This document shows, in pieces, positions 16,232 to 59,732 of a DNA stretch of 64,000 bases. Origin of the DNA: an uncultured Clostridia bacterium (GTDB lineage: Bacteria; Bacillota; Clostridia; UMGS1883; UMGS1540). The notes beneath the pieces are model-generated. The model was not told where the DNA came from, ran no database searches, and saw nothing but the letters and a program-made list of their open reading frames with translations. The position numbers were made by a program, and so were the translations under genes. The stretch is from assembly GCA_937966555.1 (NCBI GenBank), contig CALCLY010000025.1:57970-121969 (forward strand), written 5' to 3'. The first letter of the stretch is position 1, and each line of letters starts with the position of its first letter.

Positions 16232-16273
16232 GTAAAATACAATAAAAATTGATTGGGAGTTTTTATATTAACT

Positions 16274-21395: not shown

Positions 21396-21591
21396 ATAAT
21401 TTCTTCACTTTCGGTTATTGATTTAAGAGCGTTTTAAATGTTTTTTTCACTATATATATTTTATATCAAAAAAAATATCCTGTCAATGAAAAAATTTTTT
21501 AAAAACACTTGAAATTTCTTTTTATTTGTGCTATAATTTTTTTGAAAAAAGAGCTTAAAAACGAAAAATATTTTCAGAATGGAGAGGTTTT

Positions 21592-23013: not shown

Positions 23014-23023
23014 GGAGGGTATT

Positions 23024-26625: not shown

Positions 26626-26642
26626 ATTATCGGAGAGCAGCT

Positions 26643-30639: not shown

Positions 30640-30661
30640 AACAAGGAAAGGAAGACCTAAT

Positions 30662-32473: not shown

Positions 32474-32735
32474 TTTGTTCTCCTTATAAAATCGTACGAA
32501 CAATTTATTAAAAAAATTATCTTATTTTATATGGACTTTTTATACTATATATTGTATCATGAAATTGTAAATTAGTCAAGTATCACAAACGCAACCCAAA
32601 ATCCGGTAAAGGAGCTTGATGCGAAAAATTTTCCGCGTCGGTCTCCGGCAGGATCTCCTTTAGTTTTTGCTGCGCGGAGGAGATTTGATTTTGATATTAT
32701 TAATGCCGACGCGCAGCGGCGGAATGGAGTTTTAT

Positions 32736-38556: not shown

Positions 38557-41007
38557 ATGTTCGGAAAAAAACTAACGGCGATTTTTTGTGCGGCGGCAAT
38601 GACCTTGTCTTTGTGCGCATTGACAGCAGGGGCATCGGCAGGAGATATTCTTATTCCGCAAACAGATTTTGAAGGATACGACTTAGGTCACGAATTCCCC
38701 AAGAAGCAGGGAGTAGCATCTCCCGAATGGTCATATCAGAACGCAGGCTCCGCGGTTATAGCGGAGACGGAAAGAGGCAAAAGCGTTAAGGTTGCGGGAG
38801 AGGCTCACTGTGAATTCAGATACGGAAACCTCGAATGGAATATCGAAGACACAATTACATCAAGCTTTGCCATAAAGAGAGAAACGTCGATAAAAGACAT
38901 TGCTCTTATTATGTATCACAACAGCGACGCAAACTCCAGACAGGTTTTAAAGCTCCGCAATGACGGAGGCATCACCCTCTGGAAATCGAGTTACCCTCTT
39001 TCGGATTTCAAGATGGAGCTTGGCAAATGGTATGATATAACGGTTAAATACAGTAAAACAGGTAAGGTTTACGCGCATATATCGGGTAACGGCGATGAAT
39101 TTGAATGCTATGCCGAGGACAGCAAGATGGCTCTTGAAAAGGTATTGGTTTTCGATATATACACACCCGGTGCGGACACATATTATTTTGATGATGCCTT
39201 TGTTAAGGAAGATGCACCTTTAAAACATGTATTTACGCAGAGAGAAATTTTAAACGTTGATTTTTCGCAGTATGACGAAGGCACAACATGGGAGTCTCTT
39301 TACGGAGCTCCCGGAGGCGCTGCAAACGGCGCGGCAGTCGTTGCAAGTGAAAACGGAAAAAAATATATGAAGCTTACAAGCACGGGCAGTTATTTCCAAC
39401 CTGAAGTTGCGGCTTCGGTTCCGATGAGCGAAAAAGCATTTGTTTTTGAAGCCGATATAAGATATGCGGCGGCGGGCAAATTCAATTTCCAGCCGAGGAA
39501 CACCGCGGGTGAATGTAACTTTATGTATGTAGATATTAACGGAAAGATAAATTTTGGCACAAATAATTCAAGCGCTACCATTAAGTGCGGCGAAAATTCT
39601 CCGTGGTATCATGTTACATACTATTATCTCTTTGATGAGCAGACTGGCGTTGTTTTCTTTGATGACGGAGACCGAATTGTTTCTGCAAGCGGGAAAGCTA
39701 CAACGCCTGATAATAAAGATATCACAAAATGGGGATTTGTTCTCTGGGGCGGCGAAATGGATATTGCCAATATGTCCGTAAAGACATTTGACCCCAATAA
39801 AATTTCAAAGCAGGGAATAACAATAAACGATTTCTCATTTGACAATGTTGGAGACAAAATTTTAGATCCTGTCGCTGACGGCGCCGAGCCTGCAAAAAAC
39901 GCGTATTACGGCTGGATGCAGACAAATACGAAAAACGGCGAGGTTATAAGAGCAACCGCAAAGGGTGAAACCGTAGACGGCAGGAAGGTTGTTGCGTTAA
40001 AGGATATAACGGGTACGTATTCGGAGTTTATAAACGATAATTTGGGGATAGCCAAGAATATGCTCGTTGAAACCGTGCTCCGCGTGACGGACGGCTCGCC
40101 TCTTCATGTTCAGCTTCGCGGACTCAATAAAGAAGGAGCTGCGGCTAATGTGGATTCGGGGTTTGTGTATTTCACCGGAGACAGCTTTAGGCTTTTGGAC
40201 AAAAAGGTATGCGCAATTAATCCTGCGGAATGGTACAGGCTTTCGGTATACCTTGACACAGATGCCGACACGCCTCACGCATATGTGGGCATTACGAATC
40301 TTTCAAGCGGAGAGACCTTTAAGGCTGACGCAGATATACCGCGCGCAATTGCAACAATTACGAGACTCGGCTTCTTTATTCCGAACAAACCGGGAGCAGT
40401 GGCTTATATAGACAGCTGCCGCGTAAGCCAAAAGGGGCAAAACACAATAACCGAGGCTCCGAAGGACGGCGTCGTTATAGCGGCGGACGGAAAGCTTGAT
40501 TTTGCGGTTGATCTCGCAAATATCGACCCCATTGCAAGTTCGATTAAATTAAACGGTGCGGAAGCGGACGCAAGCTTTGATACCTTGAAAGACAGAAGGG
40601 TTTCCGTGTCCGGAAGCTTTGAAGAAAACAAAAATTACACAATGGAATATACGTTTAAGGACTATGCCGGCGGAAGCGTTACGGGTACGCTTGACTTTAA
40701 AACGCTCGCAAGCTACGAGTTTGGAAGCATTGAGCTTTCAAAAACGGCAATTGAAGCGGGTGCGGTTTCAGCCACGGTAAACGGCAGAGTGCTTGATTCG
40801 AAGCATTACGCTACCTTTATTATTGCCGTGAAAAACGCAAACGGACGTATTCTCGACATAGAGCTTAAAACAATCAGATACAACGCCGATAACACGGATC
40901 ATACCGTTTCGGCGGAGGTCCCCGCGGAGGAAGGCAACTACAGCGTATCGGCAATGCTCTGGAAGAGCAATATGCAGCCGATACAGAAGGCGGCTGAAAT
41001 AAAATAA
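38557..41007 (+). CDS. Secreted paralog with three tandem LamG/DUF1080-like jellyroll repeats and a C-terminal beta-rich region
   Basis: Signal peptide MFGKKLTAIFCAAAMTLSLCALTAGASA. The repeats resemble those of the upstream gene (ETERGKSVKVAG vs ETEKGKSVMGV; YFDDAFVKE vs YIDNAAFYE). Confidence 0.6.
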   Translation: MFGKKLTAIFCAAAMTLSLCALTAGASAGDILIPQTDFEGYDLGHEFPKKQGVASPEWSYQNAGSAVIAETERGKSVKVAGEAHCEFRYGNLEWNIEDTITSSFAIKRETSIKDIALIMYHNSDANSRQVLKLRNDGGITLWKSSYPLSDFKMELGKWYDITVKYSKTGKVYAHISGNGDEFECYAEDSKMALEKVLVFDIYTPGADTYYFDDAFVKEDAPLKHVFTQREILNVDFSQYDEGTTWESLYGAPGGAANGAAVVASENGKKYMKLTSTGSYFQPEVAASVPMSEKAFVFEADIRYAAAGKFNFQPRNTAGECNFMYVDINGKINFGTNNSSATIKCGENSPWYHVTYYYLFDEQTGVVFFDDGDRIVSASGKATTPDNKDITKWGFVLWGGEMDIANMSVKTFDPNKISKQGITINDFSFDNVGDKILDPVADGAEPAKNAYYGWMQTNTKNGEVIRATAKGETVDGRKVVALKDITGTYSEFINDNLGIAKNMLVETVLRVTDGSPLHVQLRGLNKEGAAANVDSGFVYFTGDSFRLLDKKVCAINPAEWYRLSVYLDTDADTPHAYVGITNLSSGETFKADADIPRAIATITRLGFFIPNKPGAVAYIDSCRVSQKGQNTITEAPKDGVVIAADGKLDFAVDLANIDPIASSIKLNGAEADASFDTLKDRRVSVSGSFEENKNYTMEYTFKDYAGGSVTGTLDFKTLASYEFGSIELSKTAIEAGAVSATVNGRVLDSKHYATFIIAVKNANGRILDIELKTIRYNADNTDHTVSAEVPAEEGNYSVSAMLWKSNMQPIQKAAEIK

Positions 41008-46501: not shown

Positions 46502-49500
46502 ATGAGCAAAAAATTATTTTCTGTTTTGGTAATTATCTCTGTGCTGGCGGCACTTTTTACATCGTTTTGTGCGGCGGACGAACACGTTAATATTTTGCCG
46601 GCGAAAACAAAAAGCATAGCGGCAAATATATCAAAACGCAATCAGGGTTTGGAAATAGAAAATGTTATTGACGGAATTGACAGTACGCGGTTTGTATCAA
46701 AGGAATCGGAAACGGGAGAACTTACGGTAACCGTTAATCTAAAAAAAGAATTCAGTTTAACTGCCGTTGCGGTACGCGAGCGTTTCTTTACCGTAGGTTC
46801 TATGGCGAACGGCGTAAATGTTGAAGTAGGTACATCAGAAACAATGAAGGCGGTTGTTCAAAACGGTAAATTAAACAGCGGAACAACCGGAAGTGACGGA
46901 GAAATCGTCAGAACGGAATTTTCTTTTGCGGCGGCAAGCGGAAACATAATTAAATTTACTTTCACGCCCGGAGCATTAAAGGGAAACGGTGAATCTTTAT
47001 ACCAGCTTGCGGAGCTTGAGGCATTCGGAACGGAAATATCTTCGGGTGAAAGCGGAGAGGAAGAGACAAATTATATGACAGAGAGAATATACAATCCGTA
47101 CCTGCCGAGTTATGAATATATACCGGACGGGGAGCCGCATGTTTTCGGTGACCGCGTGTATATTTTCGGAAGTCACGACCATTACGAAGGAGCCGATTGG
47201 TGCGGCACGGATTATGTTGCATGGTCTGCACCGGCAAACGATTTATCGGCGTGGAGGTGTGACGGCGTAATCTGGGACTGTGACAGTGACCCGAGTTATT
47301 CTTCGGGTCAGGCGCTTTACGCACCCGATGTTACAAAGGGCGCAGACGGCAAGTATTATCTTTACTATCCTTTAAACGGCTCGGGAAGAATAGGCGTTGC
47401 GAAATGCGATACGCCGGCAGGAAAATATGAATATCTCGGAGCGGTGCAATACCCCGACGGCACGAATTACGGCAGAAAAGCCGGTGATCCTCCGGCATGC
47501 GACCCGGCGGCATATGTGGATGATGACGGGAGAGTATATTTTTACGCAGGTTATACAACGCACGACGAAACGGAATACAACGGACAAATAGCAAATGGCG
47601 TGGGAGCCGACGGAGCCTATTGCGTTGAGCTGGAATCAGATATGGTAACCGTTAATGAAAACACGCGCCGGAGAATTGTTCCCGGAAAGTATATTACGGG
47701 TGAGCAGGGCAATGAAGAATATGCCGGAAACGGATTTTTCGAAGCCGCGAGCATGAGAAAAATTAACGGGAAATACTATTTTATTTATTCCAAGGAAGAG
47801 GGACATCAGCTTGCCTATGCTGTCGGAAACAGCCCGAGCGGACCGTTTTCTTTCGGCGGCATTATAGTATGCAATACCGATGTAGGTTATGAGGGAAATG
47901 TTGAGAGAAAGGCAATTTACGGAAACAACCACGGAAGCATTGCCGAGATAAACGGCGAATATTACATATTCTATCATCGTCAGACCGGGAAAAAGTGCAG
48001 ACAAGGCTGCGCCGAAAAAATAAATATAAATTCCGACGGCTCGATAAATCAGGTTGAAATAACAAGCTTTGGCTTGGGCGGCGGCCGCCCCATGCTTGCA
48101 AAGGGCAAATTCCCCGCATATATTGCCTGCAATATTTCTCAGGGTGCAAGCTACGCGCAAACAGGGAAAGACGGAGACGTTTTTGCAAAGCAATATGTTT
48201 CGGCTTTAAAGACCGGAGAGTATGTGGGATATAAATATTTTTACTTTAAAGATACGAACAAAATTTCAGTAACCGCAAAAGCTCCTTCGGGCGGAAAAAT
48301 AAAGGTTTATACAGGGGCTATGATAGGAAGTCCTATAGCGGAAATTCCTTTGTCCGCAACAAGCGAATGGACAAAGTTTTCGCAGGATGTGAAGTTTGAT
48401 AACGGCACAGAGGCGCTTTTCTTTGTGTATGAGGGCAGCGGAACTCTTGATATTCTTGATTTTACTTTGGGAGAAGAGGGAGAAAGCCATGAAGTTTCAA
48501 TAAGCGGAAGCGAAGCTGCCGTCAGCGGAGCCGGAAGCTATCAGAGCGGCGAAACCGTTGCCGTATCTGCGGGAAGCCGCGAAGGATATGCATTTGACGG
48601 ATGGACGGTGAACGGAAACGCAAAGCTTGCGGATATCGGCAGTGCGGAAACGTCGTTTATAATGCCGGAAGAAAATGTTTCACTGACGGCTTTATGGAAA
48701 GCTGCTCCGCCGACTCCGAAAAACATTTTGCTTGCCTCGCAGAATCATGTAACAAAGGCAGAGGTAAACTTGCCTGCCGTAGTGCCGGTGCTCGGCGAAT
48801 ACAAAATGCGCAACGGAGAGATAGCCTCAAACGGAGATGACCGTTACGCGGCAAAAACGGGCGATGAGCCTTTGATTATCACATATACGCTTGATAAAAT
48901 ATATGATTTTTCAAAGATTTCCGTTTACGAGCGTTTCCAGGGCTATACGTTCGGTGAGGAGGTAAAAATAGAAGTCGGCAACGTTAAAAACGGTGCATAT
49001 GTCTTTGAGGAGGCTCTTTCGGGAGGAAGACTGAAGCAGGGCGCGGAACCCGGGAATGTTAATATAGCGCCATGCGTGCGTACAGATTTTAATATTTCGG
49101 CAAAGGGAAGCGCGCTGAGGCTTACTTTTACAAATAAATGGGAGGATAAAGACGGGAACCCGACAGGCGGAGTTCAGTCAAACGGCGGAAAAGAAGTCAG
49201 CACAGGCTACAGCTTTTTTGAGCTTGAAGCTTACGGAATCGAAATTGAAGGCGGAGATTTGCCCTACAACGTATGCCTCGGAAAGGCAGTATCGGTAAAT
49301 CTGCCTGCAGAGTATGCCGCTTTGCCTGCATCGGCAATTACGGACGGTTCCTATGAAGATAAATTGATGACGGAAACCGAGTATGACAGATATACAAGTC
49401 CTCCGTCTCCGAAAGAAGCGTTGGTTGTAACAATCGACTTGGACGGAGTGTATGACATCGGCTGGGCGGAGTTTAACAGCAGATTTGTTGTAAACGAAGG

Positions 49501-50056
49501 AGTGATCGCAGACCGCGTCAAGGTCGAGGTTGGCAGATCGGGCGCTTTCGGAACAACGTGGACCGTGGCAAACGATAACGTTATATTAAATAAGGGCGGC
49601 GACGGCGAGCATGTCTCCACACTTATTCCCTTTGAAAAAACGCTTACAGGCAACGAGATACGCTTTACATTGTTCAGAAACAGTTACAGCAGTCCGTGCA
49701 ATTATAACATTGCGGAGATTATGGCATACGGAAACAAAGCTGAAACCAAAACGGAGGACAGTATAGGCAGCGTGAGATTTATGAAATCAAAGTCGGGAGC
49801 CGTGACGGCAGCCGTAAAAGTCGTAAAGCAGGAAGAAAATTCCGTTTTGCCCGAAAAAACAATACTAATATTGTGTACATATAAAAATAACAGATTAGTC
49901 AGTGTGGATAAAAAGGAATATACACCGGCGGTTGGCGGAAATGAACTTACGGCAACGGTGGACAGTGTGGACGACGGCTGTGATATAAAGGCTTTTCTTT
50001 GGGAAAGCGCCACTTTAAAGCCGCTTATCGGCTGTGAAGCATATATTGCACAATAA
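46502..50056 (+). CDS. Secreted multidomain glycoside hydrolase: N-terminal discoidin-like domain, GH43-like five-bladed propeller, additional beta-sandwich/discoidin-like modules
   Basis: Signal peptide MSKKLFSVLVIISVLAALFTSFCAA. GH43-type motifs: NPYLPSYEYIPDGEPHVF (Asp base), LYAPDV (Asp) and GFFEAASM (Glu). 1184 aa. Confidence 0.55.
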   Translation: MSKKLFSVLVIISVLAALFTSFCAADEHVNILPAKTKSIAANISKRNQGLEIENVIDGIDSTRFVSKESETGELTVTVNLKKEFSLTAVAVRERFFTVGSMANGVNVEVGTSETMKAVVQNGKLNSGTTGSDGEIVRTEFSFAAASGNIIKFTFTPGALKGNGESLYQLAELEAFGTEISSGESGEEETNYMTERIYNPYLPSYEYIPDGEPHVFGDRVYIFGSHDHYEGADWCGTDYVAWSAPANDLSAWRCDGVIWDCDSDPSYSSGQALYAPDVTKGADGKYYLYYPLNGSGRIGVAKCDTPAGKYEYLGAVQYPDGTNYGRKAGDPPACDPAAYVDDDGRVYFYAGYTTHDETEYNGQIANGVGADGAYCVELESDMVTVNENTRRRIVPGKYITGEQGNEEYAGNGFFEAASMRKINGKYYFIYSKEEGHQLAYAVGNSPSGPFSFGGIIVCNTDVGYEGNVERKAIYGNNHGSIAEINGEYYIFYHRQTGKKCRQGCAEKININSDGSINQVEITSFGLGGGRPMLAKGKFPAYIACNISQGASYAQTGKDGDVFAKQYVSALKTGEYVGYKYFYFKDTNKISVTAKAPSGGKIKVYTGAMIGSPIAEIPLSATSEWTKFSQDVKFDNGTEALFFVYEGSGTLDILDFTLGEEGESHEVSISGSEAAVSGAGSYQSGETVAVSAGSREGYAFDGWTVNGNAKLADIGSAETSFIMPEENVSLTALWKAAPPTPKNILLASQNHVTKAEVNLPAVVPVLGEYKMRNGEIASNGDDRYAAKTGDEPLIITYTLDKIYDFSKISVYERFQGYTFGEEVKIEVGNVKNGAYVFEEALSGGRLKQGAEPGNVNIAPCVRTDFNISAKGSALRLTFTNKWEDKDGNPTGGVQSNGGKEVSTGYSFFELEAYGIEIEGGDLPYNVCLGKAVSVNLPAEYAALPASAITDGSYEDKLMTETEYDRYTSPPSPKEALVVTIDLDGVYDIGWAEFNSRFVVNEGVIADRVKVEVGRSGAFGTTWTVANDNVILNKGGDGEHVSTLIPFEKTLTGNEIRFTLFRNSYSSPCNYNIAEIMAYGNKAETKTEDSIGSVRFMKSKSGAVTAAVKVVKQEENSVLPEKTILILCTYKNNRLVSVDKKEYTPAVGGNELTATVDSVDDGCDIKAFLWESATLKPLIGCEAYIAQ

Positions 50057-50253: not shown

Positions 50254-50283
50254 TTGACTTTGTGTTGAGTTTTATTGTATAAT
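50254..50283 (+). promoter_or_regulatory. Sigma-A type promoter for lyase 2 (TTGACT - 18 - TATAAT)
   Basis: Hexamers read directly, ~25 nt upstream of the RBS GGAGG. Confidence 0.5.
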
Positions 50284-50307: not shown

Positions 50308-53300
50308 ATGAAAAAATTAACAGCAATACTTGTATCTCTTGTTATAAGTGCATCATTGTTACCCGCAAGGGCGGAAACAACCCCCGGGCACAAGCTCGAG
50401 ATGTTCATGGGAAACGCAGCCGCTTTTTACATCGGACAGCCGAAGATGTACACGGGCGGTGAAGTAAAATACGTTGACAGCGAAAACATAGCCGTATTGC
50501 CTTACATAAAGGACGGAAGAACGCTTGTTCCGCTTCGTGCGGCTGGCGAGTCAATCGGCGCAGAGATTTCGTACAACGAAATTGAAAGATCGGTAACCGC
50601 TGTTTACAACGGGGAAACGGCTGTTTTCCCGATAGGTCAAAATGAGTTTACGCTCGGCGGAAAAGAAATTCCCCTCGACGTTGCTCCCGAAATACGCGAA
50701 TCGAGAACCTTTGTTCCGATAAGAGCAATAAGCGAGGGCTTCGGGAAAAAGGTTTCCTACGATAAATGCGGTCTTGTGGTCATAGCCGACAGAGAAAATT
50801 TCTTTGATCTCGAAAAGGACCTCGATTTGTTCAGGGAGCTTACGGGCAAGCTTTGCTTTCATGCGCCCTCGGGCATCGAAGCGGTAAACAAAATAAAAGA
50901 AAACTTCCCCGATAACAAGCATCCGCGCCTTTATGCCGACGATGATAAAATCGAAGTTTTGCGCCGGAGGGTAAAAACCGACGCAAGCGTTTCAAAATGG
51001 TTTAAGGGTATAAGAGATTATGCGGATACTTATATAGGTACGGACCCCGTGGTTTATGATATTTACGACGGCATCAGGCTTTTAAATATTTCCCGTAAGG
51101 CAAGAAGCATAATGCAGGAGCTTGCATTTTGCTATCAGATGACGGGCGAAACAAAGTATGCCGACAGATGCATTAAGGAAATGAACGCCGTTTGCGAGTT
51201 TCCCGACTGGAATCCGTCTCACTTTCTCGATACGGCGGAAATGACGGAAGGACTTGCCTTTGCGTACGATTGGCTGTATAACTATATTACTCCCGATTTC
51301 CGCGAAAAGGTTAAAACGGCAATAATTGAAATGGGCTTAAAACAGGGAGTTCAGGATTACAGAAATAAGCCCGAGGACAGAAAAAGAACATACAGATGGG
51401 CGCAAAGCAGTGTTGCGGACAACTGGAACATTGTCTGCAATTCGGGACTTATTCAGGGTGCAATGGCAGTTTGCGAGGACGCGCCGGAGCTTGCGGCGGA
51501 GATTTTTGAAAGCGGAATGAAGCTTTTGGAGAAAGCTGTTTTGATGTACGGTCCCGACGGCGCATGGTATGAAGGCCCCGGCTATTGGCAGTATGCGACA
51601 GAGTATTTTATCGACCTTTGCAGCTGTCTGGATTCGGTTTTTTCCGATACGTTCGGATACTTGAGTGCGCCGGGTGTTTCGCAAACGGGCTACTACATAA
51701 CGGCAATAACAGGTCCTTGCGGAAACTTTAATTTCCATGATTCCGAAATACCTGCCGTAAACGCACCCGAGCTTTTCTTCCTTGCGGATAAGCTTTCCGA
51801 CAGCGCGCTTTCGGCGCTTCGCACGGAGCAGATGAAAAACAGAAACACAAAAGGCTCGATAAGAGACATTTTATATTATAATCCCGAGCTTTCCGGCGAC
51901 TCGGCTTTGATGAAAAAGGACTATTATTTCCGTGACACGGAGGTTGCTGCATTAAGAAGCGACTGGAACGATTACAATGCGGTATTCCTGGGCGTTCACG
52001 CAGGCAAAACAGACGTTTATCACGGACACATGGACGCGGGCAGTTTTGTTCTTGACGGCTTCGGCACGCGCTATGCCTGCGATTTGGGCGCGGATGACTA
52101 CAATATAGATGACAGCGTCTGGAATCTTTACAGATACAGAGCCGAGGGTCATAACACTCTCGTTATAAATCCTTCGAAGGACGGAGGACAGAAAATAGAA
52201 GGCTCAGCGAAGATTGACAGATTTGAGTATGACGACAACGACAGCTTGGCGGTTATGGATTTGACGGATATGTACGACGCTAAAAGCGTAAAGCGCGGCT
52301 TTAAGCTTATCGATAACCGCAGCGCCGTAATAATTCAGGACGAGATAAAGACGGATACGCCCTCGGATATCTGGTGGTTTATGCACTCGGAACAAGGCAT
52401 TGAAGTGTCGGAGGATAAAAAGAGCGCAACAATAAAGGGAGAATACAGAAATCTTAAAATTTCGCTCCTTCAAGACACGCCCGGAGAATTTTCGGTTATG
52501 GAGGCGGCCCCGATGGAGACATCGCCGCAAAATGATTCTCAGAACAAAAATTTAAAGTACAGAAAGCTTGCGTTTTGCGCGAAAAACGTAACGGATTTAA
52601 CTATTCCCATGCTCTTACGGTTTGAGCTGCCAATCGAAGGCGCGGAAGAGGGGATAAAGCCCGGTGTTACAAAGCTTGACAGCTGGACTCTTGATAACGC
52701 CGAGACGCCGAAAAAGCCGAAGCTTACAAGCATTCTGGCAGACGGCAGGGAAATCGAAGGTTTTGAGAGCGACAGATTTGTTTACGCATACAGAGGCCCT
52801 TCGGAAAATGAAAAAGCGCCCGAAATCACGGCACGCGGACAGGGTGAGATAAGCGTCGTGACAACCGGCAGCGTGCCGGGATACGCCGTGGTTTCGGTGA
52901 CCGAAAACGGAGAAACACAGCATTATGTTATAAAAATAGAACGCGAAATTTTAAAGAAGGCGCCGTCAGACGTTTTGAATTTTGAAATCAAGGGCGTTGA
53001 GGCAAGCGATGTTCCGCAGCCCGAAAACAACGCGGAAAATACCATTGACGAAAACCTTGCAACGCGTTGGTCTGCATACGGAAACGCGCATATAGTCTAT
53101 GATCTGGGCGAGGTTAAGACAATCAAATACGTAGGTCTTGCCGTTTATCAGGACAAATCAAATGACGGAAGAAGACAGTATTTTGATATATCGGTTTCGG
53201 AGGACGGAGAAAATTACAGGCATATCTTCACGGGCGAAACCACGGGAACAACGCTTGAAGAAGAAATTTTCCCGATAGGAGAGGCGAAGGGAAGATATGT

Positions 53301-53373
53301 AAAAATATATTGTAAGGGTTCAAGCATGGGAAACTGGAATTCCATCACCGAATGCAATATCTACGGGAAATAA
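50308..53373 (+). CDS. Secreted polysaccharide lyase 2: signal peptide, Cu-amine-oxidase-N-like domain, heparinase II/III-family domain, C-terminal discoidin domain
   Basis: Paralog of lyase 1 at ~75-80% nt identity in the catalytic region, sharing motifs such as YHGHMDAGSFVLDGFGTRYACDLG and NWNIVCNSGLIQGAMAV. Signal peptide MKKLTAILVSLVISASLLPARA. Start at the ATG at 50308. Confidence 0.75.
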   Translation: MKKLTAILVSLVISASLLPARAETTPGHKLEMFMGNAAAFYIGQPKMYTGGEVKYVDSENIAVLPYIKDGRTLVPLRAAGESIGAEISYNEIERSVTAVYNGETAVFPIGQNEFTLGGKEIPLDVAPEIRESRTFVPIRAISEGFGKKVSYDKCGLVVIADRENFFDLEKDLDLFRELTGKLCFHAPSGIEAVNKIKENFPDNKHPRLYADDDKIEVLRRRVKTDASVSKWFKGIRDYADTYIGTDPVVYDIYDGIRLLNISRKARSIMQELAFCYQMTGETKYADRCIKEMNAVCEFPDWNPSHFLDTAEMTEGLAFAYDWLYNYITPDFREKVKTAIIEMGLKQGVQDYRNKPEDRKRTYRWAQSSVADNWNIVCNSGLIQGAMAVCEDAPELAAEIFESGMKLLEKAVLMYGPDGAWYEGPGYWQYATEYFIDLCSCLDSVFSDTFGYLSAPGVSQTGYYITAITGPCGNFNFHDSEIPAVNAPELFFLADKLSDSALSALRTEQMKNRNTKGSIRDILYYNPELSGDSALMKKDYYFRDTEVAALRSDWNDYNAVFLGVHAGKTDVYHGHMDAGSFVLDGFGTRYACDLGADDYNIDDSVWNLYRYRAEGHNTLVINPSKDGGQKIEGSAKIDRFEYDDNDSLAVMDLTDMYDAKSVKRGFKLIDNRSAVIIQDEIKTDTPSDIWWFMHSEQGIEVSEDKKSATIKGEYRNLKISLLQDTPGEFSVMEAAPMETSPQNDSQNKNLKYRKLAFCAKNVTDLTIPMLLRFELPIEGAEEGIKPGVTKLDSWTLDNAETPKKPKLTSILADGREIEGFESDRFVYAYRGPSENEKAPEITARGQGEISVVTTGSVPGYAVVSVTENGETQHYVIKIEREILKKAPSDVLNFEIKGVEASDVPQPENNAENTIDENLATRWSAYGNAHIVYDLGEVKTIKYVGLAVYQDKSNDGRRQYFDISVSEDGENYRHIFTGETTGTTLEEEIFPIGEAKGRYVKIYCKGSSMGNWNSITECNIYGK

Positions 53374-53583
53374 AAAATATTTTTTATCCTGTTCCGCTGA
53401 CATAACAGGATGTTAAAAACTCCGGAAGACAGCGGAAAAATACATTTCTTGAGGCTTAACGTGATTTTTCGCGTTAAGCCTCAAGCTGTGTAAACAATTC
53501 ATTTTATACGCCTTATCGGTTCGTGATAAGAGATTTTTAATTATTTTTTGTGCCGGCGATTTTACGGCAAAATGGAGATTAAT

Positions 53584-55395
53584 ATGAAAAACACAAACAA
53601 AAAGGACAACCTGAAATATTTCAATGCGCCAAAGGGTTCCGAAATGGTAAAAATGATTTTGGAAAAACACCACGATAACGCTCATCCGCGCCTATATGCG
53701 GATAAAAACAAAATAAAAATTCTGCGTGAGCGGATCAAAAACGACACAAATGTCTCAAAATGGTTTGAGGATGTCAAGGAGCTTGCGGAAACATATTTTG
53801 ACATCGAGCCCGTAACATACGAAATCCCCGACGGCATAAGACTTCTTCGGAATTGCCGCAGAGCGAGAGACAGAATGCAGGAGCTTGCGTTTTGCTATCA
53901 AATGACGGGGGAGACAAGGTATGCCGAAAGATGCATAAAAGAAATGAAAGCCGTTTGCGCGTTTCCCGACTGGAATCCGTATCATTTTCTCGACACTGCC
54001 GAAATGACGGAGGGGCTTGCCTTTGCCTACGACTGGCTTTACAATTACATGTCGGAGGATTTTCGCGAAACTGTTAAATCTTCCATAATAAACAAGGGTC
54101 TGATGCAGATAGTCGAAGATTACAGAGATGAGCCGAAGGACAGGCGCAGAACATGGAAATGGGCGCAGAGCGAAGTGGCGGACAACTGGAATATTGTCTG
54201 CAATTCGGGCCTTACAGAGGGTGCGATGGCGGTTTGTGAGGACGCACCGGAGCTTGCCGCCGAGGTTTTTGACGGCGGCATGGAGCTTATTAAAAAAGCC
54301 GTTTTGTTATACGGCCCCGACGGCGCATGGTACGAAGGCCCCGCCTACTGGCAGTATGCGACAGAGTATTTTATCGGCTTTTGCTGCTGCCTTGATTCGG
54401 TTTTTTCCGACACCTTCGGTTATTTGAATGCGCCGGGAGTTTCGCAAACGGGCTACTACATCACCGCAATAACAGGTCCTTGCGGAAGCTTTAATTTCCA
54501 CGATTCGTCGATGGCGGTTATGAATGCGCCCGAGCTTTTCTTTCTTGCCGACAAGCTTTCCGACAGCGCGCTGTCCGCGCTCAGGACGGAGCAGATGACG
54601 GAAGGAAACGTTAAGGGTAAAATAAGAGATATTTTGTATTATAACCCCGAGCTTTCGGGAAAGTCGGCAAAGCTTAAAAAGGACTTTTATTTCCGCGACA
54701 CGGAGGTTGCCTCCTTCAGAAGCGGATGGGACAATGACGCGATATTTTTGGGTATTCACGCAGGCAAAACGGACGTTTATCACGGTCATATGGACGCGGG
54801 AAGCTTTGTTCTTGACGGCTTCGGCACGCGCTATGCCTGTGATTTGGGTGCGGATGATTACAATATAGAGGACAGAGTGTGGAATCTTTACAGATACAGA
54901 GCCGAGGGTCATAACACTCTCGTTATAAACCCTTCGAAGGACGGCGGACAAAGCCTTGAGGGAAATACGAAAATAGATGTTTTCAAGTCGGAGGAAAGCG
55001 CATTTGCGCAAATCAATTTAACCGATATGTACAATGCCGAAAGCGTAAAGCGCAGCTTTGAGCTTACAAACAACAGAAGTGAAATAATAATACGCGACAA
55101 AATAAAAACAAATGAAAAATCCGATGTTTGGTGGTTTATGCACACAACGTGCGAAATCAGTGTGTCGGAGGACAGGCGAAAAGCAATTTTAGCGGGGAAA
55201 AACAAGGATCTTGAGGTTTCGCTTATTTCGGACATTCCGGGAGAATTTTCGGTTATGAAGGCAATGCCCATGGAGACATCGCCGAAAAACTCCGAGCAGG
55301 ATAAAAACGAGGAATTCGTAAAGCTTGCTTTCCGTACGGAGAATGTAAAAGACGCGGAAATCTCAATATTAATGCGTTTTACGGAGAAACGGTGA
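53584..55395 (+). CDS. Polysaccharide lyase 3: heparinase II/III-family catalytic region only, with no signal peptide (predicted cytoplasmic)
   Basis: Tandem paralog of lyase 2, ~90% nt identity over long stretches. Start placed at the ATG at 53584 after GGAG; alternative starts are 53572 and 53548 (TTG). Lacks the Cu-amine-oxidase-N and discoidin modules. Confidence 0.7.
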   Translation: MKNTNKKDNLKYFNAPKGSEMVKMILEKHHDNAHPRLYADKNKIKILRERIKNDTNVSKWFEDVKELAETYFDIEPVTYEIPDGIRLLRNCRRARDRMQELAFCYQMTGETRYAERCIKEMKAVCAFPDWNPYHFLDTAEMTEGLAFAYDWLYNYMSEDFRETVKSSIINKGLMQIVEDYRDEPKDRRRTWKWAQSEVADNWNIVCNSGLTEGAMAVCEDAPELAAEVFDGGMELIKKAVLLYGPDGAWYEGPAYWQYATEYFIGFCCCLDSVFSDTFGYLNAPGVSQTGYYITAITGPCGSFNFHDSSMAVMNAPELFFLADKLSDSALSALRTEQMTEGNVKGKIRDILYYNPELSGKSAKLKKDFYFRDTEVASFRSGWDNDAIFLGIHAGKTDVYHGHMDAGSFVLDGFGTRYACDLGADDYNIEDRVWNLYRYRAEGHNTLVINPSKDGGQSLEGNTKIDVFKSEESAFAQINLTDMYNAESVKRSFELTNNRSEIIIRDKIKTNEKSDVWWFMHTTCEISVSEDRRKAILAGKNKDLEVSLISDIPGEFSVMKAMPMETSPKNSEQDKNEEFVKLAFRTENVKDAEISILMRFTEKR

Positions 55396-55496: not shown

Positions 55497-55525
55497 TTGA
55501 CAAAACTTGCGATAAATTGTATAAT
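55497..55525 (+). promoter_or_regulatory. Near-consensus sigma-A promoter for the hydrogenase operon (TTGACA - 17 bp - TATAAT)
   Basis: Perfect -35 and -10 hexamers with a 17 bp spacer, ~70 nt upstream of hydC. Confidence 0.7.
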
Positions 55526-55597
55526 ACTTTTTGTGTGCTTTGTGCTATATTGTGTTAAAAAAATAACAAAGCGTAATACTCGGAAGGAGGGCTATCA

Positions 55598-56089
55598 ATG
55601 CCTCATTTGAATGATGCTTCCGCAGCAAAAATATCTGAAATTTGCGACAGATACACAGCGGAAAAAACGCCTCTAATGATGATCCTCAGCGATATCCAGA
55701 ACGAATACGGTTATATTCCTCTGGAGGCGCAGGAGCTTGTTTCGGAAAAAACGGGTATTTCCGTTGCCGAAATATACGGGGTGGTTACTTTTTACTCATT
55801 TTTCTCTTTACAGCCAAAAGGGAAATATATTATAGGCTGCTGTCTCGGTACGGCATGCTATGTTAAGGGCGCGCAGCATATTATCGATAAGTTTTCCGAG
55901 GTTTTGGGCGTTAAACCCGGTGAAACGACAGAAGACGGTATGTTTACCATCGATGCGTTAAGATGTATCGGCGCCTGCGGTATTGCTCCGGCAGTATCCA
56001 TTAACGGAAAGGTATATCCCAAGGTTTCGGTTGACCAGGTTCCCGAAATTATCGAAGAATATCGTAATATGGAGGGTGCGGGTCAATGA
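55598..56089 (+). CDS. hydC: [FeFe]-hydrogenase subunit HydC (NuoE-like thioredoxin-fold [2Fe-2S] protein)
   Basis: Motifs CLGTACYVKGA and CIGACGIAPAVSING. 163 aa. RBS GGAAGGAGG. Confidence 0.8.
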   Translation: MPHLNDASAAKISEICDRYTAEKTPLMMILSDIQNEYGYIPLEAQELVSEKTGISVAEIYGVVTFYSFFSLQPKGKYIIGCCLGTACYVKGAQHIIDKFSEVLGVKPGETTEDGMFTIDALRCIGACGIAPAVSINGKVYPKVSVDQVPEIIEEYRNMEGAGQ

Positions 56090-57951
56090 TTAAAAACTTT
56101 GATGAATTAAATTCAAAAATTTGTGATTGCTCCAAAAGCTTTGACGCCAAAATGGTGGGAGAAAACGGTAAGCGCGCAATACTTCTTTGCGGCGGTACGG
56201 GATGTCTTTCGTCAAATTCGGCCGAAATTCAGGAGAAATTTTCCGAGCTTGTAAAAGAACATAAAATGGAGGACAAGGTTTCGGTTAACAAAGTCGGCTG
56301 TTTCGGCTTCTGCTCACAGGGACCTTTTGTAAAGATTTATCCCGAAGACACGCTTTACCGTCTTGTCTGTCTTGACGATGTTGAAGAAATTTTCGAAAAA
56401 GACATAATAAACCATGAGGTTGTTGAAAGACTTTTGTATGTTGACCCTGCAACAAAAGAGCATGTTACAAAGCAGGATGATATAAACTTCTATAAAAAGC
56501 AGGTGCGTGTTGCTTTGCACGGCTGCGGTCAGATAAACCCCGAGGATATCGAAGAGGCTTTGGGCTTTGACGCATTTAAGGGTCTTATAAAAGCTCTTTC
56601 AATGTCTCGCGAGGACGTTATAAAAGAGGTTTTGGATTCCGGACTTCGCGGCAGAGGAGGAGGCGGCTTCCCAACGGGCAGAAAATGGCAGTTTGCGTTT
56701 GCTCAGCCCGACGGTGAGAAATATGTTGTCTGTAACGGCGACGAGGGTGACCCCGGTGCTTTTATGGACAGGTCAATCCTCGAAGGCAACCCTCTTGCCG
56801 TTATAGAAGGCATGATGATTGCCGGTTACGCAATAGGCGCACAAAACGGTTATTTTTACGTTCGTGCGGAATATCCCATTGCCGTTAACAGACTTAAAAT
56901 AGCTATAAAGCAGGCTGAAGAGCTTGGACTTTTGGGAGAAAACATTTTGGGCACGGGTTTCTCGTTCCGCGTTCATATAAGACTCGGCGCCGGCGCATTC
57001 GTGTGCGGTGAGGAAACGGCTCTTCTGAATTCCATAGAGGGTCAGAGAGGTATGCCGCGTCCCCGTCCGCCGTTCCCGGCAGTTAAGGGTCTGTGGCAGA
57101 GCCCGACTATAGTAAATAACGTTGAAACGCTTGCAACCGTTCCCTATATATTAAGAGAGGGCGCCGCAAAGTTTGCGGAATACGGCACGGAAAATTCCAA
57201 GGGCACCAAGGTGTTCGCCCTCGGCGGTAAAATAAACAACGTTGGTCTTGTTGAGGTTCCCATGGGCACAACGCTCCGCGAGCTTATCTATGATATCGGC
57301 GGCGGAATCCCCGAAGGAAAGAAATTCAAGGCTATACAGACGGGCGGTCCCTCCGGCGGCTGTTTGACAGAGAAGGATCTCGACACGCCCATAGACTTCA
57401 ACAGTCTCGTTGCAAAAGGCTCAATGATGGGCTCCGGCGGCGCAATTGTTATGGACGAGGATAACTGTATGGTTGACGTTGCAAAATTCTATATGGAATT
57501 TATCTGCGACGAGTCCTGCGGTAAGTGCTCACCCTGCCGTATCGGTACAAAGAGAATGCTCGAGCTTCTCACAAAGATAACCGAGGGTAAGGCTGATATG
57601 GAAGATTTAAACCAGCTTGAAGAGCTTGCCGCTACAATTAAAAACGGCGCTTTGTGCGCTCTGGGGCAGACGGCGGCAAACCCCGTTACGTCAACCCTTA
57701 CTCATTTCAGAGATGAATACATAGCTCATATCGTTGACAAGAACTGTCCCGCACATGTTTGCAAGAGACTTACAAGCTACAGCATTGACCCCGACAAGTG
57801 TAAAAAATGCAGTCTCTGTGCAAGACAGTGTCCCGTTGATGCTATTTCGGGCGTTGTCGGCAAGGAACCGTTCGTAATCGACCGGAGCAAGTGTATAAAG
57901 TGCGGAATGTGTATGTCTTCCTGCAAATTCGGCGCTGTTATAAAGAAATAA
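56086..57951 (+). CDS. hydB: [FeFe]-hydrogenase subunit HydB (NuoF-like NAD(P)H/FMN-binding subunit with N-terminal [2Fe-2S] and C-terminal 2x[4Fe-4S])
   Basis: The GRGGGGFPTGRKW FMN/NADH motif, a SLBB region, the 4Fe-4S C-X2-C-X2-C-X3-C motifs CKKCSLCARQCP and CIKCGMCMSSC, and an N-terminal thioredoxin-like Cys pattern. Confidence 0.85.
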   Translation: MIKNFDELNSKICDCSKSFDAKMVGENGKRAILLCGGTGCLSSNSAEIQEKFSELVKEHKMEDKVSVNKVGCFGFCSQGPFVKIYPEDTLYRLVCLDDVEEIFEKDIINHEVVERLLYVDPATKEHVTKQDDINFYKKQVRVALHGCGQINPEDIEEALGFDAFKGLIKALSMSREDVIKEVLDSGLRGRGGGGFPTGRKWQFAFAQPDGEKYVVCNGDEGDPGAFMDRSILEGNPLAVIEGMMIAGYAIGAQNGYFYVRAEYPIAVNRLKIAIKQAEELGLLGENILGTGFSFRVHIRLGAGAFVCGEETALLNSIEGQRGMPRPRPPFPAVKGLWQSPTIVNNVETLATVPYILREGAAKFAEYGTENSKGTKVFALGGKINNVGLVEVPMGTTLRELIYDIGGGIPEGKKFKAIQTGGPSGGCLTEKDLDTPIDFNSLVAKGSMMGSGGAIVMDEDNCMVDVAKFYMEFICDESCGKCSPCRIGTKRMLELLTKITEGKADMEDLNQLEELAATIKNGALCALGQTAANPVTSTLTHFRDEYIAHIVDKNCPAHVCKRLTSYSIDPDKCKKCSLCARQCPVDAISGVVGKEPFVIDRSKCIKCGMCMSSCKFGAVIKK

Positions 57952-57965
57952 GGGAGGGAAATTAA

Positions 57966-59732
57966 GTGTCAGAAATTAATATTAAAATAGAAGGCGTTTC
58001 CTACAAAGTTGAGGAGGGGCTTACAATACTTGAGGCCGCCAAAAAGTGCGGTTATGAAATTCCGTCCCTTTGTGCATACAATCACGGTGAATGTTCAAGA
58101 GGTTCCTGCCGCGTATGTCTCGTTGAGGCAACCGGGGCAAGAGGTCTTGTAGCATCCTGTGTGTATCCCGTAAGCGAAGGAATGGAAATCACAATTTCGT
58201 CGCCCAAGGCGGTTGCGGCAAGGCGTGCATCTGTTGAGCTGCTTCTTTCAAACCACTCGACAGACTGTCAGCAGTGCGATAAAAACGAATACTGCGAGCT
58301 TTTGCACGTTGCGCGCATTACGGGCGCGAGAGAGGGTATGTTTGAGGGAGAAAAAACCCCGACAACCTTGGACGAGCTTACGCCGTCCATCGTTCGCGAT
58401 ACGTCAAAATGTATTCTCTGCGGAAGATGTATCGAAAGATGTAAAAATGCTCACGGAAAAGGTATTTTGGGATTTGAGAACCGCGGCTTTGCAACAATTG
58501 TTGCACCTGCCGAAAACAGATCCTTTGCAAATTCGCCGTGTATACTCTGCGGTCAGTGCACAAGCGTCTGTCCTACGGGCGCATTGATGGAAAAGTCCGA
58601 AATACATAAAATTGACGAGGCGAAAAGCCGCGGTAAATTCATAGTTGTTCAGACGGCTCCTGCGGTTCGTGCGGCGCTTGGCGAGGAATTCGGAATGAAA
58701 ATAGGCACGCCCGTTACCGGAAAAATGGTTGCGGCGCTTCGCCGTCTTGGTTTCGACAAGGTTTACGATACCGATTTTGCCGCTGACCTCACAATTATGG
58801 AGGAGGCAACCGAGCTTCTCGGAAGAATAACAAACGGCGGAGTTCTTCCGATGATAACATCGTGCTCCCCCGGCTGGATAAACTACGCGGAGTATAATTA
58901 TTCCGATTTGCTTCCGCATCTTTCAAGCTGCAAATCGCCTCATGAGATGTTCGGCGCAATAGTTAAGTCCTACTATGCCGAGAAAAACGGCATTGATCCG
59001 GCTGATATTTTTGTTGTTTCAATTATGCCCTGTACGGCAAAGAAATTTGAAAAGGAAAGAGAACAGCTTAAAACAAACGGATTTATGGACGTTGACGCTG
59101 TCTTAACAACACGTGAGCTTGCAAAGCTTATAAAGCGTTCAGGCATAAACTTCAAAAAGCTTCCGGATGAGGAGTTTGACGCTGATTTGCTCGGCGATTA
59201 CACCGGAGCCGGCGTTATCTTCGGCGTTACCGGCGGCGTTATGGAGGCTGCATTGAGAACGGCTTATCACGCGCTCACAGGTAAAGAGCATGAGCTTATT
59301 AAGTTTGAAGCTGTTCGCGGTTTTGACGGAATCCGTGAAGCAAGCCTTGATATAAACGGCACCATTATAAATGTTGCTGTGGCACACGGCATGAAAAACG
59401 CAAAGGTTTTGCTTGACGATATAAGAGCGGGCAAGTCAAAATATCACTTTATCGAGATAATGGGCTGCCCCGGCGGATGTATTGCGGGCGGCGGTCAGCC
59501 GTATGTGAAACCGTGCTTTTTGCCCGATGAGGATATTGATATTCTCGATACGTATAAGGAAAAGAGAGCAGCGGCGCTTTATTCCGAGGACGAAAGAAAC
59601 GCTGTGCGTCAGTCTCACAACAATATGCAGGTTAAGGCGCTTTATGATGAGTTTTTGGGAGAACCTAATTCGCATAAGGCTCATGAGCTTTTGCATACGA
59701 CATATGCGGCGCGTGAGGGCTTTAACGACTGA
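57966..59732 (+). CDS. hydA: [FeFe]-hydrogenase catalytic subunit HydA (M3 type: 2Fe-2S, His-ligated 4Fe-4S, 2x4Fe-4S, H-cluster), GTG start
   Basis: H-cluster motifs L2 MPCTAKKFE and L3 EIMGCPGGCIAGGGQP. L1 reads TSCSPGW, where the canonical form is TSCCPxW. Also the N-terminal ferredoxin-type Cys patterns. Confidence 0.85.
   Translation: MSEINIKIEGVSYKVEEGLTILEAAKKCGYEIPSLCAYNHGECSRGSCRVCLVEATGARGLVASCVYPVSEGMEITISSPKAVAARRASVELLLSNHSTDCQQCDKNEYCELLHVARITGAREGMFEGEKTPTTLDELTPSIVRDTSKCILCGRCIERCKNAHGKGILGFENRGFATIVAPAENRSFANSPCILCGQCTSVCPTGALMEKSEIHKIDEAKSRGKFIVVQTAPAVRAALGEEFGMKIGTPVTGKMVAALRRLGFDKVYDTDFAADLTIMEEATELLGRITNGGVLPMITSCSPGWINYAEYNYSDLLPHLSSCKSPHEMFGAIVKSYYAEKNGIDPADIFVVSIMPCTAKKFEKEREQLKTNGFMDVDAVLTTRELAKLIKRSGINFKKLPDEEFDADLLGDYTGAGVIFGVTGGVMEAALRTAYHALTGKEHELIKFEAVRGFDGIREASLDINGTIINVAVAHGMKNAKVLLDDIRAGKSKYHFIEIMGCPGGCIAGGGQPYVKPCFLPDEDIDILDTYKEKRAAALYSEDERNAVRQSHNNMQVKALYDEFLGEPNSHKAHELLHTTYAAREGFND

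Follow-up and report, generated by a model that had tools for sequence, protein, structure and literature searches.

A 64-kb window of DNA from an uncultured Clostridia bacterium (the whole stretch analyzed here) carries two adjacent lyase genes, L2 and L3, of which the downstream one is far shorter. How did the short gene arise, and what would its product do? The initial annotation had proposed a recent tandem duplication of L2 with loss of the flanking modules, pairing an extracellular endo-lyase with an intracellular exo-acting or oligosaccharide lyase.

Architecture and relationships of the three lyases

The gene L2 (positions 50308 to 53373, + strand) encodes a predicted secreted PL35-type lyase of 1,021 amino acids (aa), characterized here by its translation, Pfam, AlphaFold2, and Foldseek. 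A predicted signal peptide (aa 1 to 23) is followed by a Cu_amine_oxidN1-like module (about aa 38 to 160), an (alpha/alpha) toroid (aa 189 to 523), a beta-sandwich (aa 539 to 772), an Ig-like module (about aa 806 to 892), and an F5/8C (CBM32-like) module (aa 896 to 1020). L3 (53584 to 55395, + strand) encodes a predicted leaderless, core-only PL35-type lyase of 603 aa, as judged from its translation, Pfam, phmmer, and residue columns. Both proteins have the Pfam domains DUF4962 and Hepar_II_III_C, and the Cu_amine_oxidN1 (aa 59 to 153) and F5_F8_type_C (aa 899 to 1015) matches of L2 are missing from L3. BLASTP aligned the two at 71% identity over 589 aa with two 1-aa gaps (L3 aa 13 to 599 with L2 aa 184 to 772), confirming that these adjacent, same-strand homologues are tandem paralogues. 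Their reading frames and starts agreed with the initial annotation, and so did the lack of a signal peptide, Cu-amine-oxidase-N module, and discoidin module in L3, which we judged by Pfam, a reading of the N terminus, and a crude hydrophobicity heuristic.

A third copy, L1 (32736 to 36473, + strand), was identified by Pfam and by BLASTP against L2 and L3 as a long-form PL35-type lyase of 1,245 aa. It consists of a signal peptide, an N-terminal module of about 250 aa, Cu_amine_oxidN1, the catalytic core, an Ig-like module, and F5/8C, and an identical 1,245-aa protein was found in a database cluster. L1 is the first gene of an operon whose conservation in relatives shows as synteny with L001, L003, and L054. 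We also considered a 1,037-aa open reading frame at 17145 to 20258 as a possible fourth lyase (outside homologues are equal in size) and ruled it out as a dCache/GGDEF/EAL signaling protein.

The three copies were monophyletic with 100% bootstrap support, and their sister gene, RGIG1656 L001, encodes a secreted protein of 1,250 aa. All 13 Clostridia relatives with a readable gene start, the sister included, carry a signal peptide and both N- and C-terminal extensions, and 9 of the 13 have the full L1-type architecture (1,237 to 1,262 aa). In the AlphaFold model of L2, the two-domain core runs from the start of the toroid (aa 189) to the end of the last sandwich strand (aa 772), and the ends of L3 fall exactly at these limits. 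Domain loss in L3 is well supported, because the copies form one lineage-specific clade and the outside relatives are long secreted forms; the original idea that L3 is a derived, stripped form therefore held up. In the flanks of L3 (53374 to 53583 and 55396 to 55597), searches with blastx and with blastn-short against L1 and L2 recovered no relics of the lost modules, only noise (E > 0.1). We propose that the three genes would have been duplicated within the lineage from a long, secreted, multimodule ancestor. L1 would retain the full ancestral architecture, L2 would have dropped the first N-terminal module, and L3 would have been pared down precisely to the two-domain core, with the signal peptide and all accessory modules gone.

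Divergence of the copies and the L2/L3 mosaic

Next, we looked at how the three copies differ from each other. Core identity was alike in all three pairs (70 to 73% for amino acids and 72 to 75% for nucleotides), with L1-L2 the closest pair at the protein level (73.1%, against 70.3% and 907 bits for L2-L3 and 69.8% and 911 bits for L1-L3). At the level of the whole gene, L3 was thus equally similar to L1 and to L2, the outcome that the initial annotation itself had named as counting against its proposal. Synonymous divergence (dS) was 1.04 for L2-L3, 1.23 for L1-L2, and 1.53 for L1-L3, with dN/dS of 0.13 to 0.19. The low synonymous divergence expected of a recent duplication was not seen for L2-L3; judged by dS, which places synonymous sites near saturation, the duplications happened long ago.

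The initial annotation had pointed to long stretches of near-identical DNA in L2 and L3. The 44-mer that it quoted is indeed exact in both genes (52126 to 52169 in L2 and 54886 to 54929 in L3) and occurs exactly twice, against a chance expectation of 0 matches, but taken as a whole, the shared core is no more than 74.7% identical in nucleotides. Four exact runs of at least 23 nucleotides (nt) were found (28, 23, 35, and 50 nt), all in the central part of the gene. The maximum chi-square segment that delimits this part covers 51553 to 52176 of the + strand in L2 (about aa 416 to 623) and 54316 to 54936 in L3 (aa 245 to 451), a tract of about 620 bp that holds the 44-mer and all four runs and to which the near-identical DNA is confined. 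The statistic (31.6) was reached by 0 of 200 permutations, and L3 matched L2 at 77% of the discriminating sites in the tract versus 46% elsewhere. Inside the tract, L2-L3 nucleotide identity was 85.0% and dS 0.59, with dS of 1.32 and 1.93 for the pairs with L1; outside it, identity was 69.6% and dS 1.52, with 1.18 and 1.37 for the pairs with L1, so that L2-L3 became the most distant of the three pairs. In region-wise Kimura-corrected neighbor-joining (NJ) trees, L2 and L3 grouped in 83% of replicates within the tract and in 0.3% for the C-terminal third (1 of 300 bootstraps), and the proportion of synonymous differences (pS) in the C-terminal part was higher for L2-L3 (0.76) than for either pair with L1 (0.62 to 0.63).

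Site patterns and synonymous divergence in the tract thus both differ from those of the flanks, and the pattern is that of a gene-conversion-like mosaic. Most simply, the central tract of about 620 bp would have been homogenized by conversion after the old duplications. Gene conversion between tandem paralogues is a general phenomenon in bacteria, and L2 and L3 resemble known cases in being adjacent direct repeats about 210 bp apart with an internal tract of far lower synonymous divergence than its flanks. They differ from young conversion tracts in the tract's dS of 0.59 and 85% identity, values that suggest a record of one old event or several and no ongoing homogenization.

No single branching order was adopted for the three copies, as uncorrected NJ grouped L1 with L2 (76%) and Kimura-corrected NJ grouped L2 with L3 (78%). 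Because of this instability, an old tandem duplication of an L2-like gene without any conversion remains an alternative, in which L2 and L3 would be sisters throughout and the ends of L3 would have evolved faster, mimicking a mosaic. L3 does have the most lineage-specific amino acid changes (37, versus 28 in L2 and 19 in L1), half of which (18) lie in aa 452 to 603, and the N-terminal part weakly favors L2+L3 (59%). Relaxed protein constraint, however, should not yield a regional difference in dS of the kind seen between the tract and its surroundings for L2-L3 (small or reversed in the pairs with L1), and the high C-terminal pS of L2-L3 weighs against this account as well. We consider it unlikely, if the strongest of the competitors.

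A recent duplication is more doubtful still. Outgroup-polarized informative sites favor L2+L3 overall (69 versus 53 and 35 for nucleotides; 20 versus 6 and 8 for amino acids), as do the Kimura-corrected tree, the adjacency of the genes on one strand, and the exact 44-mer. Against these stand the overall dS near 1.0, which still reaches 0.36 to 0.41 in the most similar windows of 50 to 60 codons examined, the equal closeness of L3 to L1 and L2, the distance between L2 and L3 outside aa 245 to 451, and the rejection of L2+L3 by the C-terminal third. The near-identical DNA is most likely a local copy-correction patch, not a sign of recent duplication. The endo/exo pairing that came with this proposal fares no better, with no loop inserted in one core relative to the other that could close the cleft for exo action (see below).

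Catalytic residues, expression signals, and predicted role of L3

To place the enzymes in a family, we used sequence searches, a structure model, and active-site residues. The best phmmer matches of L3 were 8khv (E value = 1.3e-72, aa 33 to 550), 8khw (8.7e-60), and 9o3q (2.8e-56), with the next families (PL33, PL15, PL17, and PL12) at 1e-12 or weaker. The AlphaFold2 model of L2 (pLDDT 88.5, pTM 0.81; helices at aa 189 to 523 and strands at aa 539 to 772) gave the same three structures as top Foldseek matches (target-normalized TM scores of 0.84, 0.83, and 0.79). In PL35 enzymes, a Tyr and a His act as Bronsted acid and base, and an Asn acts as the neutralizer. For GAGase II, the triad is Tyr246/His401/Asn192 and the Mn ligands are His403/Asp405/Asp421/His457 (PMC12088678). 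The corresponding triads are Y255/H400/N201 in L3, Y426/H572/N372 in L2, and Y646/H792/N592 in L1, in columns invariant across 55 aligned sequences, and the predicted metal ligands of L3 (His402, Asp404, Asp420, and His443) have equivalents in L1 and L2. By sequence, modeled fold, triad, and predicted Mn ligands, all three are PL35-type lyases.

L2 and L3 share with GAGase II (8KHV), GAGase VII (8KHW), and BcPL35 (9O3Q) the (alpha/alpha)6 toroid and antiparallel beta-sandwich, and L3 matches a stand-alone core in size, as in PL35 glycosaminoglycan (GAG) lyases. In contrast, the identity of L2 to these enzymes is only about 24 to 29% in structural alignment. The residue before the neutralizer Asn is Asp here, Asn in GAGase II, and His in GAGase III and 35 of the 55 aligned relatives, and the omega-loop segment that bears Trp438 and Arg446 in GAGase II is about 12 residues shorter. 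The F5/8C module of L2 aligns over 130 residues with the CBM32 of the alginate lyase AlyQ (7D29 and 7D2A; 37 to 38% identity, TM score of about 0.8). In 7D2A, this CBM32 holds an unsaturated uronate, and the L2 counterpart is missing from L3.

We then considered expression and targeting signals. L2 starts at the ATG at 50308, downstream of a promoter-like site at 50254 to 50283 (+ strand; TTGACT, 18-nt spacer, TATAAT), which matched 11 of 12 positions in a consensus scan and is a pattern match only. The same scan gave no + strand promoter-like site upstream of L3. L3 starts at the ATG at 53584, with a GGAG ribosome-binding site read from the sequence 6 nt before it (53574 to 53577, + strand), and its open frame extends upstream to 53548 only, that is, by 12 codons. 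Signal peptides were called by eye from the N termini together with the crude hydrophobicity heuristic. The N terminus of L2 reads MKKLTAILVSLVISASLLPARA, with predicted cleavage directly before E, and was examined for a basic region, a hydrophobic core, and an AxA-type site. That of L3 reads MKNTNKKDNLKYFNAPKGSE and lacks a hydrophobic stretch; no hydrophobic segment was found in the N terminus or in the upstream open frame from 53548 on. For P0001, a 607-aa form of L3 (99% identical), the maximum Kyte-Doolittle mean, a crude heuristic, was 0.20.

The L2-L3 spacer holds a stem-loop (53448 to 53485, + strand; 17-bp stem with one G-U pair, RNA fold z-score of -5.7). It has no canonical T-tract and fails the rule of our terminator scan; a role in partial termination or in RNA stability is possible. 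Rfam gave no match anywhere in the window, this spacer included. Once aligned, the spacer is 99% identical to that of strain L081; an apparent divergence between strains (86 ungapped mismatches) proved to be an indel artifact.

L3 is probably a functional cytoplasmic lyase, as its triad and metal site are intact and it is under purifying selection. That partial duplication left it as a relic in decay or without function, as its want of any targeting or binding module and of a promoter-like site of its own might hint, is highly improbable given the retained catalytic and metal residues, the good ribosome-binding site, the dN/dS of 0.13 to 0.19, a 603-aa frame that is full length and intact in 14 strain variants (98.7 to 99.5% identical), and a strain variability (3.2% of columns) similar to that of the L2 core (2.2%). 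Gene order was unchanged in strains L081, L082, and L083, and the contig of a sister species (L084, 85 to 94% nucleotide identity) ends before the L2/L3 position.

Pairs of leadered and leaderless lyases are known from other families. Yersinia has a secreted endo-acting and a cytoplasmic exo-acting PL2 paralogue (YePL2A/YePL2B), and secreted alginate lyases work with cytoplasmic oligoalginate lyases such as PL15 Atu3025 (3A0O) and PL17 Alg17c (4NEI), two structures that appear among the phmmer and Foldseek matches here. In such pairs, the enzyme with the leader attacks the polymer and the leaderless one completes the breakdown of oligosaccharides in the cytoplasm. The initial annotation had proposed such a model, and L2 and L3 resemble these pairs in that one member has a leader and its paralogue does not. 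In the PL2, PL15, and PL17 pairs, the exo enzyme has added loops or a domain by which the cleft is shut off at one end to form a pocket. Unlike those enzymes, L3 shows no such PL15- or PL17-type element, differing from L2 by only two 1-residue gaps over 589 aa, and no importer is encoded in the window. Exo action of L3 is thus without sequence support, although substitutions could still alter the mode of action.

Locus context, substrate, and meaning for the family

Upstream of the lyases, at 24933 to 26625, lie genes for two enzymes of unsaturated-uronate processing, KduI and a PfkB kinase. The 64-kb window encodes neither an oligosaccharide importer nor an unsaturated-uronyl hydrolase (GH88/GH105), so that the cytoplasmic pathway is incomplete as seen there. 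These absences would fit a leaderless L3 that acts outside the cell, released by lysis, exported by a nonclassical route, or serving as the soluble partner of surface-bound L2, the two then differing as tethered and free enzymes. The commonest architecture in the wider family is likewise core-only (about 600 to 640 aa). Most of these core-only relatives have a hydrophobic N terminus, however (84 of 120 by the crude heuristic), and L3 bears no positive sign of export; we regard an extracellular L3 as improbable. In the explanation that we prefer, L3 would stay in the cytoplasm and cleave imported uronic-acid oligosaccharides, and L1 and L2 would attack the polymer at the cell surface via their CBM32-like and wall-associated modules. 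Homology, architecture, phylogeny, the mosaic pattern, conservation, and the retained residues are observations; from them we infer this localization, activity, substrate, and division of labor, and we find the explanation as a whole, with its old paralogues, stripped L3, and conversion tract, somewhat more plausible than not.

PL35 lyases cleave GlcA-containing GAGs (hyaluronan, chondroitin, and heparan sulfate) by beta-elimination. Those that have been characterized act in endo mode and stem from GAG loci of Bacteroidota that include GH88 (PMC12269599). The neighbors here are different: SLH proteins, a lectin-like protein, and a GH43 arabinofuranosidase/xylosidase-like gene, with no GH88. 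The substrate may therefore be something other than an animal glycosaminoglycan, a question on which the Asp-Asn motif bears too. Two neighboring proteins of 636 and 816 aa had no sequence match in PDB or NCBIfam. The 816-aa protein, which has only 6 homologues, gave a model of a lectin-like jelly-roll array rather than of an enzyme.

A bolder reading, which we offer as speculative and rather unlikely, is that L3 would be the first known cytoplasmic PL35-type lyase derived secondarily from a surface-anchored multimodule enzyme. It would be the intracellular finisher of a Clostridia-specific PL35 clade whose substrate is a uronic-acid glycan of plant or microbial origin rather than an animal GAG, a clade marked by the Asp-Asn neutralizer motif, the shortened omega loop, and the GH43, SLH, and lectin-like partners. 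If this were true, L1-L2-L3 would be a natural deletion series for each accessory module.

Paralogue expansion, module loss, and gene-conversion patches are routine in carbohydrate-active enzyme families, and what we describe is ordinary enzyme-family evolution that implies no new mechanism. The clade extends PL35 into gut Clostridia, at a locus unlike a glycosaminoglycan locus. Moreover, the three lyases form a natural truncation series (1,245, 1,021, and 603 aa) on one catalytic core, in which the contribution of the CBM32-like, Ig-like, Cu-amine-oxidase-N-like, and N-terminal modules to a PL35 enzyme could be studied.

Two adjacent lyase genes and their domains

The ORF map placed two PL35-type lyase genes side by side on the + strand, L2 (50275/50308-53373) and L3 (53548/53584-55395). 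In a 589-residue BLASTP alignment, interrupted by two gaps of one residue each, their products shared 71% identity, and the 44-mer quoted in the initial annotation occurred as one exact copy in each gene (L2, 52126-52169; L3, 54886-54929; chance expectation, none). L2 starts with what reads as a typical Sec leader (MKKLTAILVSLVISASLLPARA, followed by E) and is preceded by a TTGACT-18-TATAAT site and a GGAGG ribosome-binding site. The N-terminus of L3 is MKNTNKKDNLKYFNAPKGSE, with GGAG located 6 nt before its ATG (53584). Since the L3 frame opens only 12 codons upstream of this ATG and contains no hydrophobic segment there, L3 most probably has no hidden leader. Pfam domains DUF4962 and Hepar_II_III_C were common to both proteins, and Cu_amine_oxidN1 and F5_F8_type_C were found in L2 but not in L3. 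The initial description of neighboring same-strand lyases, the second lacking the leader and both accessory domains, was thus confirmed. The spacer between them carries a stem-loop (53448-53485; 17-bp stem, one G-U pair, no T-tract) and is predicted to fold much more stably than shuffled versions of itself (z = -5.7).

Age and mosaic structure of the L2-L3 pair

We compared L2 and L3 with each other and with the third paralogue, L1 (32736-36473; 1,245 aa), over 603 shared codon columns, with dS calculated by the Nei-Gojobori method. Identities were 73.1% (amino acid) and 74.5% (nucleotide) for L1-L2 (dS = 1.23), 69.8% and 71.8% for L1-L3 (dS = 1.53), and 70.3% and 74.7% for L2-L3 (dS = 1.04), with dN/dS values of 0.13 to 0.19 for the three pairs. 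The dS range of 1.04 to 1.53 indicates that the duplication is old, and the recent event initially proposed is contradicted by the L2-L3 value. Nor did the whole-gene alignment place L2 and L3 closer to each other than to L1, the outcome that the initial annotation had named as counting against its reading.

Similarity between L2 and L3 was unevenly distributed. All exact runs of at least 23 nt lay in the gene center, and a maximum chi-square scan delimited a segment, L3 aa 245 to 451, whose value was attained in 0 of 200 permutations. At sites distinguishing L1 from L2, L3 matched L2 in 77% of cases within this tract versus 46% elsewhere. Within it, L2-L3 nucleotide identity was 85.0% (dS = 0.59; L1-L2, 1.32; L1-L3, 1.93); outside it, identity was 69.6% (dS = 1.52; L1-L2, 1.18; L1-L3, 1.37), making L2-L3 the most distant pair there. 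Region-wise trees grouped L2 with L3 at 83% support in the tract and at 0.3% in the C-terminal third. This pattern is most simply read as a conversion event between the tandem neighbors, later than the duplication yet not recent. Because the branching order of the three genes over the whole gene was unstable and 18 of 37 L3 lineage-specific substitutions, an excess, fell within its last 150 residues, an old L2-to-L3 tandem duplication in which the ends of L3 evolved faster stays as a weaker alternative to gene conversion.

Origin and maintenance of the leaderless copy

Among 185,579 species genomes scanned, the closest outside relative was the goat-caecum Clostridia MAG RGIG1656 (58% identity), and in a neighbor-joining tree L1, L2, and L3 were monophyletic (100%), with a 1,250-aa lyase of RGIG1656 as their sister. 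This genome carries two long-form lyases in tandem (contig L001, 3423-6644 and 6661-10413) and at least four lyase paralogues (contigs L001, L003, L005, and L051). Expansion of lyase paralogues is a trait of this clade. A word-indexed protein search with L3 missed the L1 cluster, which is 70% identical and present in the collection, so absences in that search are unreliable. We inspected 15 Clostridia relatives, 13 of them with a readable gene start; in each of these 13 a signal peptide was present and the core was extended at both ends, and 9 had the full L1-type architecture (1,237 to 1,262 aa). The most parsimonious ancestor is a long, secreted enzyme, and L3 is therefore a secondarily stripped form. 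In an AlphaFold2 model of L2 (pLDDT, 88.5; pTM, 0.81), the ends of L3 (aligned to L2 aa 184 to 772) coincide with the toroid start and the final sandwich strand. The domain loss proposed at the outset is supported by both the relatives and these core boundaries. No relics of the lost modules were found in the L3 flanks.

The 603-aa L3 frame was intact in 14 strain variants (98.7 to 99.5% identical), and variable columns were about as frequent in L3 (3.2%) as in the L2 core (2.2%). The L2-L3 arrangement also occurs in other strains, and the spacer, including its hairpin, is 99% conserved between strains. Together, the intact frame, low variability, and kept arrangement and spacer indicate that L3 is a maintained gene. 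Judged from its sequence, L3 most likely works in the cytoplasm, because it is leaderless. By a crude heuristic, 36 of the best 120 matches were leaderless core-only family members, several with L3-like N-termini, so a cytoplasmic PL35-like enzyme has precedent at the sequence level. The Gfo/Idh/MocA oxidoreductase of the locus is also leaderless.

A sugar-acid catabolic cluster (20559-31483) just upstream of an AraC-type regulator (31568-32503) and L1 includes KduI and a PfkB kinase (unsaturated-uronate catabolism). It also encodes an RpiR regulator, a FAD oxidase, an Fe-S protein, a class II aldolase, an FGGY kinase, an ETF-like protein, and an amidohydrolase. Elsewhere in the window, two c-di-GMP signaling proteins are neighbors of each other (16253-20258; one GGDEF, one dCache-GGDEF-EAL). 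No importer, GH88, or GH105 gene was found within the 64-kb window. That L3 is an exo-acting partner of an extracellular endo-lyase, as had been suggested, is unsupported: the L2-L3 alignment, with its two short gaps, gave no sign of a closed, exo-type cleft in L3. The F5/8C module of L2 (52993-53367; aa 896 to 1020) shares 37 to 38% identity with the CBM32 from AlyQ, an alginate lyase (7d29, 7d2a), this CBM32 having been solved with unsaturated uronate bound, and PF07833 occurs widely in wall-associated proteins of Gram-positive bacteria (PMC4137172). The accessory modules of L2 fit action at the surface. Downstream of L3, a sigma-70 consensus promoter (55497-55525; 12/12) precedes a three-gene operon (region 55497-59732) of NuoE-like, NuoF-like, and [FeFe]-hydrogenase genes laid out as in electron-bifurcating HydABC.

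Enzyme family, locus, and putative substrate

The best solved relatives of L3 were the PL35 lyases GAGase II (8khv; E = 1.3e-72), GAGase VII (8khw), and BcPL35 (9o3q), to which the L2 model aligned with TM scores of 0.79 to 0.84; matches of L3 to PL33, PL15, PL17, and PL12 were far weaker. GAGase II uses the catalytic triad Tyr246, His401, and Asn192 and the Mn2+ ligands His403, Asp405, Asp421, and His457 (PMC12088678). All of these residues are present in L1, L2, and L3, the counterparts in L3 being Y255, H400, and N201 (triad) and H402, D404, D420, and H443 (predicted metal ligands). Two features distinguish this clade. The neutralizer Asn is preceded by Asp, where GAGase II has Asn and 35 of 55 aligned relatives have His, and the omega-loop segment is about 12 residues shorter than in GAGase II, where it carries Trp438 and Arg446.

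L1 is the first gene of an operon that also encodes a Big_5 protein, an 816-aa lectin-like orphan, two SLH proteins, the Gfo/Idh/MocA oxidoreductase, and a GH43 arabinofuranosidase/xylosidase-like enzyme; its gene order is kept in the Clostridia relatives, and L2 and L3 follow directly. Among strain variants, some just 90.7% identical overall, the accessory modules of L1 varied in 19.5% of columns versus 2.7% in the catalytic core, and its surface modules appear to be diversifying. Only 6 homologues of the secreted 816-aa protein (38557-41007) turned up in 5.8 billion proteins. Its identity was just 89% to the copy in a strain that matches this locus at 97.5% of DNA positions, and its model consists of three jelly rolls of the legume-lectin/ConA-like type together with Ig-like modules (pLDDT, 64). 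The large secreted GH43 enzyme (46502-50056), directly upstream of L2, carries F5/8C, CBM6-like, and InlB B-repeat modules, and its best PDB match was a termite-gut arabinofuranosidase/xylosidase (9no3; E = 5e-90). A neighbor of this kind may point to a plant-type glycan as the target of the locus.

Hyaluronan, chondroitin, and heparan sulfate are the substrates of the characterized PL35 enzymes, whose genes lie in Bacteroidota loci with GH88 (PMC12088678; PMC12269599), whereas the partners here are the GH43-like enzyme, SLH proteins, and lectin-like protein. The relatives came from herbivore guts. The substrate is no less likely to be an acidic glycan of plant or microbial origin than an animal glycosaminoglycan. 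The locus combines several lyase paralogues, one of them leaderless, with a patch of probable conversion, a kind of system already known; its value is modest and lies in the natural truncation series formed by L1, L2, and L3 and in a Clostridia PL35 clade so far unexplored.
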